Shown in pieces: positions 57,152-61,601 of a DNA stretch of 64,000 bases. This DNA is from Deltaproteobacteria bacterium. Lineage in GTDB: Bacteria > Desulfobacterota > Desulfobaccia > Desulfobaccales > 0-14-0-80-60-11. The notes beneath the pieces were generated by a model. That model saw only the letters and a program-made list of their open reading frames with translations. It did no database searches and had not been told where the DNA came from. Every line of letters begins with the position of its first letter. The first letter of the stretch is position 1. A program made the translations under genes and the position numbers. Location: positions 1,285 to 65,284 of the forward strand of contig JAKAKP010000147.1 in the NCBI GenBank assembly GCA_021813445.1. The letters are read 5' to 3'.

Positions 57152-57751
57152 TTAAGGAGCCGCCGCGGTCTGCGGCCGCATCCGCTCTAAGGCCCGGGTC
57201 AGCTCCAACAGGACCCCCAACCCCTGGCGGCATTCCGGACTCCGCATCTGCCAGAGCAGGCCCAGGGGCCCCACCGGTTCGGCCTCCTGCAGACGTGAAT
57301 TCAGAGCCACATCCGCCAGCCGGTCCATGAACTGGAGCATCTCTCCGGAGAACAGCTTGCCGAAGATCTTGAAGACCTGCTGTTGTTCCAAGACATCCAA
57401 CTGGTCGATCATTTTAGGCACCGCAATTTTCAGGATCGGCTCCATGTCCGCCCACCAGTCGATGAAGTTTTCCAACTGCTCCAAAGCCCAGGAGAGGTAC
57501 TTCAGGCTGGGGAGAAGCCTTTTTAAAAGGGCGAAAAAGTCCTCCAACTGGAAGCCGATTTCCACTTCCACCAGTTCTTCCGTCAGCTTCCTGGCCGCGG
57601 GGTCCATGAGGATGGAGAGATCCTTACCCAGATCCGTCAGGGTCTCCCAGGGCCGGGCAAAGACCTCCAACTGCTTTTCCACCCGGGCGACTCCCTCCAG
57701 CCTCTCTTCGATGCGGGCCAGCCGTTCCAGCAGCAGTTCCTCGTTGATCAT
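57152..57751 (-). CDS. DUF1641 domain protein (SQR partner)
   Basis: C-terminal PVGPLGLLWQMRSPECRQGLG; ATGA overlap with sqr. Confidence 0.8.
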   Translation of the reverse strand: MINEELLLERLARIEERLEGVARVEKQLEVFARPWETLTDLGKDLSILMDPAARKLTEELVEVEIGFQLEDFFALLKRLLPSLKYLSWALEQLENFIDWWADMEPILKIAVPKMIDQLDVLEQQQVFKIFGKLFSGEMLQFMDRLADVALNSRLQEAEPVGPLGLLWQMRSPECRQGLGVLLELTRALERMRPQTAAAP

Positions 57752-59019
57752 GGCCGCTTCCTCCTGAGGGGCATCTCAATATCCGGCGACAAAATACCCC
57801 GCACTTTGCCGGCCAGCACAAACTGTGTTTCCAGGGGCAGGTGGCTGCCCTTGAGCATCAGGTTGTAATAGACCCACCGGAACATCATCTTGCCGACGTA
57901 ATTGGCGAAGCTTTCTTTGAGCAGGTCCATGGGGCCGAGGCCCGGAAAGGGGAATTTACCCGGCAGGGGCTCAATTTTGTAATTGAAGTCGAGAAGGGAC
58001 CCCTTCTCGTAACCGGTGACCACCAGTCAGGTGGCGTGGCCATCGTAATCGGGTAAGGGCGGCTGGCCATCGATTTCCCGCTGCAGATTTTTAATGATGG
58101 TGTCAGCCTCGTAGTGGGCCACGGCCCCGGCCTTGGAAGTGGGCACGTTGGCTGCGTCGCCGATGACATAAATATGATCGAAGTTTTTGGCCTTCAAGGT
58201 GTGGTGGTCGGTGTCCATATATCCCATGGGGTCGCCCATACCGCTGTCGATGATGCACTGGGCCCCGAAATTCGGCGGGATTGCCACCAGGAGGTCGTAG
58301 GGCACCTCCTCGCCCCCGTAAGATTTGATGATCTTCTTCTCCCCCTCCACCTGGGCGATCTGGTAGTTGGTGGTCACCTTGATGTTCTTCTGCTCGCAGA
58401 TATGCCCCAAAATGCCGGCGGCCACGGGTTTGGTGAAGGCCGCGCCCAGGGGGGTCACCAGTTCGATCTCAATGTTTTTCCGCACGCCGTTGACGCTGAA
58501 ATACCAGTCGGCCATGAACGCGAATTCCAGGGGGGCCACCGGGCATTTGAAGGGCAATTCGGCGATATTGATCACCACCCTGCCCTTATCGAAATATTTC
58601 AGTTTGTCGCAGAGGGCCACTGCGCCCTCCTGGGAATAGAAATTGTGGATGTTCCCCCCCATCCCCTCAGCCATACCCTCCACTTCAGCGGGCATAATGC
58701 GGCAGCCGGTGGCGATCACCAGCCAATCATAGGGATAGGTGTCCCGCTTGGTCTGCACCTCCTTCTTAGTCGGGTCGATGGCGGTGATGTCATCGAGGAC
58801 AAAATTTACTCCCGGCGGGATATACTTGACCTTGGGTTTGACGCAGTCTGCCGCGGTGTAAATGCCGAAGGGGATGAAGAGCCAGCCGGGTTGGTAGTGG
58901 TGCTGCCAGTCCCGGTCGATGATGGTGATGTCCCATTGGGTCTCGGGTAATATTTTGCGCATTTTGCCGGCAATAATGGTGCCGCCGGTGCCGCTGCCCA
59001 GAATTACCAATTTTTTCAT
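57748..59019 (-). CDS. sqr: Type III sulfide:quinone reductase with probable selenocysteine at codon 331
   Basis: GSGTGG, YQPG, FKCPVAP, PTSKAG; YDGHAT-TGA(58027-58029)-LVVTGYEKG joins two track ORFs in frame; hairpin at 57990-58009. Confidence 0.9.
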
Positions 59020-59048: not shown

Positions 59049-60119
59049 TCAAAGTTCAAGGTTTGAAGTGCAAAGTTCACCAATAAAACATTGGGGGTCC
59101 GGGGCCAGAAAATCCGGGTGGCCCCGGGCCTGGGAATAGGCATAGGCAATGGCCCGGCAGCCCCGGCACTGGGCCCAGCGGCCGCACGAGCCGCAACCTT
59201 CCGCATACCGGCTCCGGTCTCTCAGGGCTTCGAGCACCGGCGAGGCAGCCCAGAGTTCCCGCAGGGAATCCCGGCGCACGTTGCCAATGGGCAGGGGCAG
59301 CCTGCGGCAAGGGGTGACCGTGCCGTCGGGGAGCAGAGTGAGCCCGGAGACCCCGGCAGCGCAGCCGCCCAGGGCAATGGTGCCGGCATCCTGCCCGGGT
59401 GCAGGAAAATTCATTTGGGAGGCCATGGGATCGCCGGTGGTGATTTCCAAACCGGAAATCCGGAGCCCGGCAATCTTCCCGTAGAGTTCCTGAACCTGCG
59501 CCGTGCTCAGCATCTGGTCCAAGAGGGCCAGGCCCCGGCCGGAAGGCACCAGCCGGGAAAAGCCCAGGCGGGGCACCCCCAGGGAGGCCGCCAGGTCCGC
59601 CAGGTCGAAGAAGTCCCCGGCATTCATCTGGGATAAAGTGGTGTTGAGGGAGACCTGGACCCCGGCAGCCAGCAGGTCCCTCACTCCGGCCACCGCGGCG
59701 GCAAAGCTGCCCGGCCCCCGGATGCGGTCATGAGTCCTTTCCAGCCCCTCCAGGGAAACCTGGACGCCGTCCACCCCCAGATCCGTCAACTTCCGGGCGA
59801 TGTCCCGGGTGATCAAGGTGCCGTTGGAGAGGATGTAGACTTCGAAGCCCGTGGCCAACATTCGCTCCAGGATGGCAAAGAAATCTTCTCTTAAGAAAGG
59901 TTCGCCGCCGGTGACATTAAAACTGGGAAGAAATTGAATACCATAAGTATCTTGCCATTCTTGCACCATTTGTGCCGCGGTTTCTATGGTCGCCGCAATT
60001 TCCAAAAAAGACATCTCATCTATTTTCTTATTATCCTGATAACAGTGCTTGCACCGCAAATTACACCGTTCGGTGAGGTGCCATTGAATTAAAAAGTCGA
60101 AAGACTGCGCCACCGACAT
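59049..60119 (-). CDS. Radical SAM/SPASM domain protein
   Basis: CNLRCKHC, TGGEP; SPASM C..G..TPC...CGSC....CRGC...DPQC. Confidence 0.93.
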   Translation of the reverse strand: MSVAQSFDFLIQWHLTERCNLRCKHCYQDNKKIDEMSFLEIAATIETAAQMVQEWQDTYGIQFLPSFNVTGGEPFLREDFFAILERMLATGFEVYILSNGTLITRDIARKLTDLGVDGVQVSLEGLERTHDRIRGPGSFAAAVAGVRDLLAAGVQVSLNTTLSQMNAGDFFDLADLAASLGVPRLGFSRLVPSGRGLALLDQMLSTAQVQELYGKIAGLRISGLEITTGDPMASQMNFPAPGQDAGTIALGGCAAGVSGLTLLPDGTVTPCRRLPLPIGNVRRDSLRELWAASPVLEALRDRSRYAEGCGSCGRWAQCRGCRAIAYAYSQARGHPDFLAPDPQCFIGELCTSNLEL

Positions 60120-60168
60120 GAATATTCACCACTAATAAGCTTGAAGTAAAAAAACTAATATAATAAGA

Positions 60169-60216
60169 GCAGATATGGCGAACGGTAATTTACTACCCCG
60201 TGTTTGCCATATCTGC
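60169..60216 (-). terminator. Stem-loop between peptide and rSAM genes
   Basis: GCAGATATGGC...GCCATATCTGC followed by an AT/U-rich tract on the minus strand. Confidence 0.6.
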
Positions 60217-60223
60217 CCGCCTT

Positions 60224-60244
60224 TAGTTGCTGAACCAGCAACTA
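60224..60244 (-). promoter_or_regulatory. SECIS-like hairpin
   Basis: TAGTTGCT-ggttc-AGCAACTA; loop about 20 and 29 nt after the two UGA codons. Confidence 0.65.
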
Positions 60245-60364
60245 TTACTTCGATTTTCATTCCTTTCATTTGTGACATACCTTACCAGGATTTTGCACCA
60301 ACATCTTCTTGATGTTTTCCCAGAAGGCAGCCTCTTTAGCCAACGCTTCTTTATTTAGCTTCAT
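60245..60364 (-). CDS. Putative di-selenocysteine peptide MKLNKEALAKEAAFWENIKKMLVQNPGKVCHKUKEUKSK
   Basis: AAGGAGGTG RBS; TGA at 60266-60268 and 60257-60259 in CxxUxxU spacing; TAA-TAG double stop. Confidence 0.78.
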
Positions 60365-60401
60365 CCTGTCTTCACCTCCTTTCTGTCAGATTTATGCTGG
60401 A

Positions 60402-60430
60402 AAATTAAGCACCAGCCCCGGGCGTGTCAA
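60402..60430 (-). promoter_or_regulatory. Sigma70-type promoter of the peptide/rSAM/sqr unit
   Basis: TTGACA-17 bp-TAATTT. Confidence 0.6.
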
Positions 60431-60481
60431 GCGGCCGCACTGGCGGCAAGACCGAAGGCATATGGAGGAAAACTGAGGGTG

Positions 60482-60691
60482 TTAAGGTTCTTGCAGACAG
60501 GGGGCGGGGGTGTCAGTCAGCCGGTCGGGCCAGCTGTAGGTGCAGAAATAGGAGGAAGCGTCGCAAAAACAGACAAAGGCTTCATCCAGGGCCAGATAAA
60601 TGCAGGAATCGCAACAGGAGGGGAGCTCATCTCTGGAGGAGCCGGGCAGGCTGAATTGCCCGGTGCGGAACCCGGTCAGATCAAAGGTCAT
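60482..60691 (-). CDS. Small Cys-rich protein
   Basis: MTFDL...CCDSC...CFC...C...C; start overlaps the end of the TPR gene. Confidence 0.5.
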   Translation of the reverse strand: MTFDLTGFRTGQFSLPGSSRDELPSCCDSCIYLALDEAFVCFCDASSYFCTYSWPDRLTDTPAPCLQEP

Positions 60692-61601
60692 GGTCTTCTT
60701 CTGCCAGCCACAGGCGGACGGACTCGGCCCTTTTACTGTCTGGGTCCAGGAGCAGGTATTGACGCCAGTGTTTCCCGGCTTCCTCCAGATCCCCCCGCTT
60801 TTCCAGAACCCGGGCCAGATTAAACAAGGCATCCACGAACTCCGGGTCTTCATGGAGGGCTTTGCGGTAAAACAAGAGGGCATTGTCCAGCTCGCCCCGT
60901 TCCTCGAAGATCTGGGCCAGATTGTAATTGGCCTCCGGATGATCCGGATTGAGGTACAGGGCCTTGCGGTAGGCCCATTCGGCGGCCGGGCCCAGGGTCA
61001 GGCGGTGCAAAAGATTCCCCAGATTGACCAGGGCATTGGGGTATTCGGGTTTAAGGTGCAACGCGGCTTCGTACTTCTCCCGGGCCTGTTCCCACTCCCC
61101 CAGTTCCTCCCCCGCCAACCCCTCGAAAAAAAGCTCCTCCGCCGGGTCCACCGGCGGCGCCGGAACAGAGCCGTCAGCGGCCTCAAACTTGATGAGCATC
61201 TGCCCTTCCGGGGTGAAGGCCTGGTTGTCTTTGCCGAAGACGATCTGGTCCCCCCGGATGGTCACCCGCACTTCGGACAGGGGCTGTTCCAGGTCCGGCA
61301 GCAGCGACCGCACCCGGGCCAGGCATTTTCTGATTTTTCTTAAAGAAGCGCCCTGGTCCAGCAGGGCCTTGACCGTGCGGAAGGCCACCAGGCCCTGAAA
61401 ATCAAAGAGCAGCTTCCCCTTTTCCCGTTCCACGTGGGGGATGAGGCCGACACTGTCCCAATAGCGCACCTGGCTCTCGGAGATGCCCGCCAGTCTGGAT
61501 ACCTGCTTCTGGTCGAAGAGCTGTTTCATGGCATTATGGGGCTGCTCCATCCTCCCGGGCCGGAGTGGCTCCATTATGGCCTTTGGGTCCACGGCCGTCA
61601 A
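60681..61601 (-). CDS. MerR-HTH plus TPR protein
   Basis: VSRLAGISESQVRYWDSVGLI followed by several TPRs; start may be 61529. Confidence 0.88.
   Translation of the reverse strand: MTAVDPKAIMEPLRPGRMEQPHNAMKQLFDQKQVSRLAGISESQVRYWDSVGLIPHVEREKGKLLFDFQGLVAFRTVKALLDQGASLRKIRKCLARVRSLLPDLEQPLSEVRVTIRGDQIVFGKDNQAFTPEGQMLIKFEAADGSVPAPPVDPAEELFFEGLAGEELGEWEQAREKYEAALHLKPEYPNALVNLGNLLHRLTLGPAAEWAYRKALYLNPDHPEANYNLAQIFEERGELDNALLFYRKALHEDPEFVDALFNLARVLEKRGDLEEAGKHWRQYLLLDPDSKRAESVRLWLAEEDHDL

Follow-up and report, generated by a model that had tools for sequence, protein, structure and literature searches.

The first peptide made on the ribosome and modified after translation (RiPP) containing selenocysteine (Sec, U) to be made by a radical S-adenosylmethionine (rSAM) enzyme is described as that of the SbtA/SbtM system, in which Sec sits in a GGUG motif (PMC9204691). 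SbtM abstracts Cβ hydrogens of Cys or Sec to give a thio(seleno)oxazole with the loss of 4 Da per residue, and the system is said to be confined to Geobacter and Desulfobacteria (PMC9204691). A 2026 review of prokaryotic selenoproteins gives SbtA as a 'selenobacteriocin', TIGR04081, with the motif SGUG, and also lists three UxxU families, namely a Prx-like oxidoreductase, the NF041115 metal-binding protein and an FmdB-family protein (PMC13188914). The maturases PapB and Tte1186 accept Sec, bind it via an auxiliary cluster and form Se-C bonds in vitro, and for both Se K-edge EXAFS has served to look for Se-Fe and Se-C contacts (PMC10177961). Here we describe a locus in a 64,000-nucleotide (nt) stretch of DNA from a Deltaproteobacteria bacterium (GenBank assembly GCA_021813445.1, contig JAKAKP010000147.1, positions 1,285 to 65,284 of the forward strand), which we call the window. 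A short gene with two in-frame UGA codons is followed there by the gene of an rSAM/SPASM enzyme, and an earlier note on this DNA had put the two forward as a candidate new seleno-RiPP system. The best explanation of the whole, and one we think probable, is a two-gene cassette in which both UGAs are decoded via one Sec insertion sequence (SECIS) and a dedicated rSAM enzyme modifies the core of the encoded peptide.

The selenopeptide gene, recognised by translation and conservation, occupies 60242..60364 on the minus strand (-). Its 39 codons, two of them UGA to be read as Sec, run from 60364 to 60248 (-), with the ATG at 60364-60362, and are followed by a double stop, TAA at 60247-60245 and TAG at 60244-60242 (-). 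The open reading frame (ORF) reads MKLNKEALAKEAAFWENIKKMLVQNPGKVCHK-U-KE-U-KSK, and with TGA as U its product is MKLNKEALAKEAAFWENIKKMLVQNPGKVCHKUKEUKSK (39 residues). The core has the spacing C-x-x-U-x-x-U, with the two UGAs (Sec33, 60266..60268; Sec36, 60257..60259; both (-)) 9 nt apart, just as the earlier note had read it. Translation table 11 lists only a 32-residue stump for this gene, 60266..60364 (-). The strong ribosome-binding site that had been claimed is present as the Shine-Dalgarno sequence AGGAGGUG (60373..60380, (-)), 8 nt ahead of the ATG. It is kept in the homologues, an AGGAGG(T) or GGAGG-type sequence preceding nearly all of 67 homologous peptide genes.

From contigs that represent each species by one genome we gathered 80 loci whose rSAM relatives are 56-90% identical; they belong to Desulfobaccales, Nitrospirota/Thermodesulfovibrionales, Geobacteraceae, Deferribacteres and other records. 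Their upstream DNA was translated with TGA as U, using a search pattern that admitted Cys or Sec at all three core positions. Of the 80 loci, 68 have a peptide gene ahead of the rSAM orthologue, which makes 68 of the 77 with enough upstream DNA; three of the remaining 12 have less than 160 nt of upstream DNA and nine have a different gene there. All 68 peptide-bearing loci have Cys at the first core position and TGA at both others, the second TGA always 9 nt past the first, and under this Cys-permitting pattern neither TGA position carried TGC or TGT in any of them. Both TGAs are also present in 10 further peptide copies outside these loci. One locus (L026) carries two near-identical copies of the peptide gene, at 854-958 and 2658-2762, about 1.8 kb apart.

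The homologous peptides are 35-43 residues long (67 genes). In 24 representatives E11, A12, C30, K32, U33 and U36 are invariant and W15, P26, K34 and K37 nearly invariant; His31 is not conserved, being H, R, Q, L or F among the homologues. A set of 75 distinct peptides includes 65 that end two residues past the second Sec; the invariance of C, K and U in this set partly follows from the pattern by which it was collected, and the looser, Cys-permitting pattern is the independent test.

The earlier note had staked its case partly on conservation beyond the first TGA, and this is what the homologous loci show. The pattern TGA-AAR-NNN-TGA-AAR is retained in 64 distinct sequences, with the second TGA always in frame. 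The codon after the first TGA is AAG in 59, AAA in 3 and AAC in 2 of these sequences, the middle codon takes 10 different forms, and codon +4 is AAG in 48 and AAA in 13. There are no indels between the Cys codon and the second TGA; behind it the spacer varies from 1 to 17 nt. The nucleotide pattern across both TGAs is that of coding sequence.

A profile of the peptide gave 411 matches (E<=10) among 5.8 billion proteins, those listed being mostly 32 or 34 residues long. When 25 of the 411 were fetched, 24 ended at C-H-K or C-H-N, which is the first TGA, and one had been translated with TGA as W. The family is therefore common and systematically truncated in databases. The expectation that TGA would align with TGC or TGT in some homologues failed: there is no Cys/TGA interchange in the 80 loci and no Cys form among the 25 sequences inspected out of the 411 matches. 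A Cys version was likewise missing upstream of six inspected members of sister rSAM families (206-282 bits). Because both TGAs are invariant and in frame, we read the missing interchange as pointing to an obligate-Sec family and do not take it as a refutation.

The TAG of the double stop is overlapped by a hairpin, AGUUGCUG-GUU-CAGCAACU (60225..60243, (-)), seen both in folds and in the family alignment. Its stem has 8 bp in the window and a 6-bp core family-wide, with a loop beginning GGU. The first G of the loop lies 20 nt past the second UGA and 29 nt past the first, in agreement with the distances given in the earlier note. We built a covariance model (R1) from 62 sequences and aligned 70 matches (64 distinct) to it. 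In this alignment (A4), which as a model-fitted alignment with the helix named by hand leans towards the structure, 98.9% of the cells of the six-pair helix pair, and 4 of the 6 pairs show compensatory change (UA to CG, CG to UA), so that the covariation hoped for is found. None of 500 shuffles reached the observed helix values on four of five measures; for the remaining one, which counts further pair types, 14 of 500 did. Controls with a slid 3' partner paired in 15-58% of cells. RNAalifold predicted zero pairs on a MAFFT alignment (A3) because MAFFT had placed a gap inside the 3' arm.

Fifty of the 64 distinct sequences have the base of the stem 10-11 nt behind the second UGA; its distance from the first is 19-20 nt. 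Loops starting with GGU occur in 58 of the 64. In position and loop the hairpin matches the minimal SECIS of E. coli fdhF. Judged by its sequence and fold, the hairpin over the stop is a SECIS. In a different genome (G233) the R1 model also retrieved a SECIS that belongs to a SelD selenoprotein. No bacterial SECIS family in Rfam matched the hairpin region at E<=10; the Rfam matches that did appear (ctRNA_pND324, 34.7 bits against a gathering threshold of 45; frnS; rliE) were unrelated and sub-threshold and were rejected. Recurrence in 68 of 80 loci from several phyla, together with the covariation, confirms at the level of comparative sequence analysis that the ORF, both TGAs and the hairpin are not a product of chance.

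The source genome has the Sec machinery that such a gene needs, with selA (598 bits), selB (364 bits), selD (371 bits) and tRNA-Sec (76 bits) all above their cut-offs, a point that the earlier note had asked to be checked. Among five carriers tested, selB is present in four, which are all those at least 90% complete; the fifth is 85% complete. The selD gene of the source genome (G000:C72:13215-14132) has one in-frame TGA, which makes SelD itself a selenoprotein. Of the usual marks of a bacterial selenoprotein gene, the peptide gene has a conserved in-frame UGA, a covarying G-loop SECIS hairpin shortly 3' of it and selA, selB, selC and selD in its genome; Cys homologues aligned to Sec are the mark it lacks.

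The second gene of the cassette (59049..60119, (-)) encodes a 356-residue rSAM/SPASM enzyme. It starts 122 nt past the TAG and 125 nt past the TAA of the peptide gene, where the earlier note had placed it. Pfam finds the rSAM domain (PF04055, 80.3 bits, cut-off 29.5) and the SPASM domain (PF13186, 39.9 bits, cut-off 21.5), and the CxxxCxxC motif at C19, C23 and C26 together with a C-terminal SPASM region with its cysteine set places the protein in the Radical SAM/SPASM superfamily. Cysteines 19, 23, 26, 253, 271, 309, 312, 318 and 321 are invariant in 13 orthologues and Cys344 is nearly so. The rSAM core begins at about residue 10, leaving no room for a RiPP recognition element (RRE), and the description of a short maturase without such an N-terminal domain therefore holds.

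The best NCBIfam matches of the enzyme are to the ACGX-system rSAM (181.2 bits), NirJ2 (180.2 bits) and AhbD (171.3 bits), followed by GeoRSP (about 165 bits), MftC (149 bits), SbtM (145.8 bits) and the heme-pathway families NirJ (140.7 bits), NirJ1 (138.2 bits) and AhbC (134.9 bits). It falls below every NCBIfam cut-off, and by so far that we place it in an unnamed SPASM clade. The closest solved structures are SkfB (87.6 bits), PqqE, anSME and CteB (35.8 bits), so its nearest solved relatives are peptide or protein maturases. In two sister families (L107 and L109, 228-242 bits) the rSAM gene is preceded by that of a membrane protein with a strongly repetitive, GC-rich C-terminal stretch, which looks like a different substrate class for a neighbouring SPASM clade.

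Peptide and enzyme go together across genomes. We used two samples of 151 genomes each, one from the organism's own phylum and including the source genome, the other from the phylum to which a Thermodesulfovibrionales record belongs. Six genomes of the first sample, the source genome among them, contain the peptide element, and the same six have the best rSAM scores, 427-673 bits, the next genome scoring 275.5 bits. In the second sample 21 genomes have an rSAM above 500 bits, the next best being 282 bits, and all 18 element matches of at least 40 bits fall within these 21. A nineteenth genome, G277, has a divergent peptide, CRKUSSUKS, that the RNA model overlooked. Three element matches below 36 bits lie in genomes without the rSAM; of the two inspected, that in G233 is the SelD SECIS and that in G214 is unrelated, the third being in G269. 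A weak match in the rSAM-bearing genome G183 was also unrelated.

Nine genomes have the rSAM without an adjacent peptide gene, and each of them has exactly one complete peptide copy elsewhere, with no second rSAM of the family beside it. The next ORF is convergent to the unlinked peptide gene in 6 of the 9, which argues against a mere leader peptide. The neighbours of these unlinked genes are selB in two cases, selD in one, a gene for an ArsS (seleno)protein in one, a PhsA/Fdh-like molybdoenzyme gene in two, and others. The peptide gene thus often stands, convergently, beside selenium machinery (selB in L098 and L103, selD in L102), and in L105 it adjoins a gene of the ArsS rSAM selenoprotein family. 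A short peptide gene that is both adjacent to and co-occurring with the enzyme is the arrangement of a RiPP precursor-maturase pair. No third conserved gene of the cassette was found in the 80 loci, and neither a protease nor an exporter belongs to the conserved unit. In 15 of the 80 loci (e.g. L093:4040-4630) the rSAM gene is followed by that of an ICMT-like membrane methyltransferase; its matches, to isoprenylcysteine-carboxyl or methanethiol S-methyltransferase (MddA), are weak (31-45 bits), and it may have a tailoring role, such as Se- or carboxyl-methylation. A thiol peroxidase gene lies downstream in 12 of the 80.

Between the two genes of the cassette there is a second hairpin (60148..60216, (-)), recognised by its fold, with arms GCAGAUAUGGC and GCCAUAUCUGC, a 26-nt interior and a T-rich run behind it. 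The 146-nt region that contains it folds with -43.6 kcal/mol (z -4.96). In form it resembles a terminator or attenuator; with a loop longer than 8 nt it escaped the terminator scan. Its 5' arm, GCAGAUAUGGC, is conserved in sequence a few nt past the SECIS in many loci of different phyla, which goes beyond what a plain terminator needs. Upstream of the peptide gene, the sigma70 promoter that the earlier note had described stands only in part. There is a perfect TTGACA, a possible but weak -35 hexamer read from the sequence (60425..60430, (-)), and the -10 candidate, TAATTT at 60407-60402 (-), matches the consensus at 3 of 6 positions, for which reason a promoter and terminator consensus scan of 60050-60520 called no site. 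The stretch 60203-60390, including both UGAs and the hairpin, is covered by contigs of relatives (85-99% alike) from the metatranscriptomic libraries of two studies. The RNA runs contained only 0.04-0.06 of the sampled words, and the want of cover over most of the rSAM gene and the spacer carries no meaning. The relatives' contigs lend weak support to expression of the peptide gene.

Two further genes of the window deserve mention. Downstream of the rSAM gene, 57748..59019 (-) encodes a type III sulfide:quinone reductase (SQR) of the selenoprotein subtype (NF049943, 658.8 bits against 525, with TGA read through). Under table 11 the gene falls into two ORFs, of 341 and 91 residues, on either side of an in-frame TGA (58029-58027), and the region past this UGA folds into two hairpins with GGUC loops. 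We rejected SQR as a third cassette gene: it adjoins in 3 of the 80 loci, and the downstream neighbours vary. On the other side, a Cys-rich ORF of 69 residues (MTFDLTG..., 60485-60691, (-)) starts 4 codons before the stop of a MerR-TPR gene (60681-61601), which it overlaps; it has no family match, and homologues in 2 of the 80 loci.

From the gene with its recoding signals, the Sec machinery of the genome and the linkage and co-occurrence with the enzyme, we predict Sec insertion at both UGAs, an enzyme-substrate relation and its chemistry. The first gene would give a selenopeptide of 35-43 residues with a helical-looking N-terminal part, containing K-E-A-A-F-W, and a C-terminal core, N-P-G-K-V-C-H-K-U-K-x-U-K-S, usually ending two residues past the second Sec. 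SelB on the single hairpin would deliver Sec-tRNA at both UGAs, the second at canonical SECIS spacing and the first 9 nt further upstream. Where a third in-frame TGA follows 6 nt past the second, it would act as the stop, presumably escaping recoding because it is too close to the hairpin. This third TGA lies directly before the hairpin, and read-through there would run the frame on into it.

As the rSAM enzyme is without an RRE domain, we propose that it would bind the peptide directly, recognising the conserved K-E-A-A-F-W segment. It most likely modifies the Cys/Sec core. An auxiliary Fe-S cluster would first hold a chalcogen of Cys or Sec, with the C-x-K-U-K-x-U-K core then undergoing modification through 5'-deoxyadenosyl radical chemistry. 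The outcome could be S/Se-C crosslinks of the sacti- or ranthipeptide type, each costing 2 Da, or Cβ oxidation to a thio/seleno-heterocycle as in SbtM. The C-x-x-x-K and U-x-x-x-K spacings, with their (nearly) invariant lysines, invite the idea of putative chalcogen-to-Lys crosslinks and do not show them. Two proposals of the earlier note, that the product carries Se-C crosslinks and that one SECIS serves both UGAs, are likewise predictions. The strong conservation, the lack of Cys variants and the lack of a protease or exporter suggest a housekeeping peptide, with an intracellular redox or metal-binding role for its selenium, rather than an antibiotic. We advance more tentatively, as a possibility on which we would not yet bet, that the product is an obligately Se-dependent peptide-derived cofactor or metallophore, with the rSAM enzyme forging native Se-C crosslinks or selenol-bearing heterocycles on the C-x-K-U-K-x-U-K tail.

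Several observations weigh against a Sec-decoding cassette with a dedicated maturase. A Cys-for-Sec variant, the usual comparative proof of a selenoprotein, is missing in the 80 loci and the 25 fetched relatives. In 29 of 67 peptide genes (e.g. L037, L047 and L054) the frame terminates at a third in-frame TGA, 6 nt past the second, so that the cell must separate Sec-UGA from stop-UGA by position or spacing alone, and the first UGA, at 19-20 nt from the stem, is further away than the spacing that is optimal in E. coli. The enzyme is without an RRE and without a conserved PqqD-like partner. No peptide was found in 2 of the 21 rSAM-positive genomes of the second sample, G183 and G290, the rSAM of G290 being interrupted by a TAA. 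The RNA-library contigs come from relatives and could reflect DNA carry-over. The first two of these points bear on the idea that the first TGA is a real stop, giving a product of 32-34 residues that ends in C-H-K, with UGAAAG-NNN-UGAAAG and the hairpin forming an untranslated RNA element. Gene callers do close the protein at this TGA, no Cys variant proves read-through, and the third in-frame TGA of many loci must terminate. An untranslated element sits badly, however, with TGAs that never leave the frame or their distance of exactly 9 nt, with an unconstrained codon between them, synonymous AAG/AAA exchange and a length-variable spacer behind, and with a covarying hairpin that has the position and GGU loop of a SECIS. 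All tested carriers at least 90% complete have selB, and three of the nine unlinked peptide genes adjoin selB or selD. We consider a real stop very improbable. Hardly more can be said for a selenium-sensing leader peptide, whose tandem Sec codons and terminator-like hairpin would control the rSAM operon in the manner of trp attenuation. In its favour, a strong second hairpin with a T-rich run behind it separates the short ORF, which has two rare-decoding codons, from the rSAM gene. Many loci share the 5' arm motif GCAGAUAUGGC, and conserved Trp and Pro residues can occur in arrest peptides. Yet the gene is unlinked from the rSAM in 9 genomes, where the convergent next ORF in 6 leaves nothing downstream to regulate, the unlinked copies still co-occur with the rSAM, and the N-terminal 30 residues are conserved across phyla. 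We give this reading very little weight too.

The peptide might instead be a two-Sec micro-selenoprotein, with a redox or metal/chalcogen-binding tail, that works with the rSAM enzyme and is not its substrate; it could serve as a donor of selenium or electrons, or as a ligand to a cluster, with the rSAM acting on another molecule. The CxxUxxU spacing is that of the ferredoxin-type CxxCxxC ligand motif, the peptide is conserved over its whole length in a cassette without protease or exporter, and the enzyme is without an RRE. Its neighbours (Sec-SQR, thiol peroxidase, a PhsA-like Mo enzyme, selB and selD) have a redox or chalcogen flavour, and UxxU metal-binding selenoproteins have been predicted (PMC13188914). 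Against this, the adjacency and near-perfect co-occurrence of a Cys/Sec-rich peptide with a SPASM enzyme is a precursor-maturase signature, and the nearest solved relatives of the rSAM act on peptides or proteins. Sulfur-donating rSAM enzymes, moreover, are not known to be of the SPASM type. We judge a partner of this kind unlikely. There is almost nothing to recommend the last reading, in which the rSAM is an AhbD-, AhbC- or NirJ-type enzyme of the heme/siroheme pathway and has nothing to do with the peptide next to it. NirJ2 and AhbD are among the best NCBIfam matches, and some source databases label relatives 'AdoMet-dependent heme synthase', but the scores for AhbD, AhbC and NirJ, 134.9-180.2 bits, are far under the cut-offs of 500-650, no heme-pathway gene is conserved beside the rSAM, and its presence tracks the peptide in both samples of 151 genomes. 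The earlier note had named such a grouping as one that would undo its case; the enzyme stands apart from these families and has a linked peptide.

If the cassette is what we propose, it would be a second family of Sec-containing rSAM-modified peptides, unrelated to SbtA/SbtM, which is the sole one in the literature covered, and would differ from it in the smaller size of the enzyme, in the Sec motif and in a much broader spread among anaerobes. On the more tentative reading given above, it would provide the first native Se-C crosslink or seleno-heterocycle chemistry outside SbtM, in about 1 in 8 genomes of the Nitrospirota-type sample, and nature would offer in it an example of a single SECIS that recodes two UGAs 9 nt apart and leaves a third, 6 nt further on, to act as stop. 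With their tandem UGAs and, in many members, a positional stop-UGA, these genes would be a small natural system in which the rules of SECIS spacing can be put to the test. The peptide is at present systematically mis-annotated as a hypothetical protein of 32-34 residues. As no Cys form was found, selenium appears to be chemically indispensable, and the peptide and rSAM, a gene pair of only about 1.3 kb, are well suited to asking what selenium does that sulfur cannot in radical peptide chemistry.

How, then, does the locus compare with what has been described? Release 20.0 of NCBIfam has no model for either the peptide or the rSAM, which suggests that the family is not curated, and a literature search on Sec, rSAM and RiPP turned up no description of it. 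With the predicted UxxU double selenoproteins it shares two Sec residues three positions apart and, presumably, UGAs at a distance of 9 nt under a single SECIS (PMC13188914). Those families, unlike the present peptide, are domains of larger or unrelated proteins, none given with CxxUxxU or an rSAM partner, and the string 'CxxUxxU' has no occurrence in the part of the review covered (PMC13188914). The enzyme resembles most the ACGX-system, GeoRSP and NirJ2/AhbD enzymes (TIGR04340, TIGR04303, TIGR04055 and TIGR04545), its best NCBIfam profiles at 164-181 bits, which are also rSAM and SPASM proteins of about 330-350 residues without an RRE. It differs in scoring less than half of their curated cut-offs of 400-500 (for the ACGX-system rSAM, TIGR04340, 181.2 bits against 400) and in having a Sec peptide as partner in place of an ACGX-repeat peptide or a tetrapyrrole.

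With SbtA/SbtM the locus has in common a short ribosomal UGA-Sec peptide with a SECIS and a radical SAM/SPASM enzyme in anaerobic Deltaproteobacteria-type organisms, and newer SbtA annotations carry at least two Sec residues (PMC9204691). The earlier note had nonetheless held this locus to be unlike that family, and rightly. Sec stands here in the context C-x-K-U-K-x-U-K-S at the extreme C-terminus, in SbtA in GGUG or SGUG (PMC9204691, PMC13188914). The window peptide, with its K-U-K context, has no match to TIGR04081 at E<=0.1; 24 members of the family gave no meaningful NCBIfam match (E<=1), TIGR04081 included, and no Pfam model covers the window peptide. The rSAM reaches 145.8 bits on the SbtM model TIGR04082, whose cut-off is 350, and aligns only to positions 199-503 of the 516 in the profile; the N-terminal part of SbtM, some 200 residues, is therefore missing. 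In distribution, too, the systems differ, the peptide family being present in 19 of the 151 genomes of the Nitrospirota-type sample. In vitro SbtM also works on Cys peptides (PMC9204691), whereas no natural Cys form was found here.

The SCIFF/ranthipeptide and PapA/PapB systems (CteB, Tte1186 and PapB) offer the other close parallel, a two-gene unit of a short, conserved, Cys-rich peptide and a SPASM rSAM. SCIFF systems have no obligatory protease or exporter. The PapA motif is C-x3-D, which the C-x-x-x-K and U-x-x-x-K spacings of the present core resemble. SCIFF/ranthipeptide and PapB-type maturases have an N-terminal RRE, and the enzyme described here, unlike these CteB/PapB-type maturases, starts directly with the rSAM core; its similarity to CteB is weak (35.8 bits). 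In PapB and Tte1186 the chalcogen of Cys is held on an auxiliary cluster before the chalcogen-C bond is formed, and Sec gives Se-C (PMC10177961). The natural substrates of the SCIFF and PapA systems, however, have Cys, and the peptide of the present locus has Sec.

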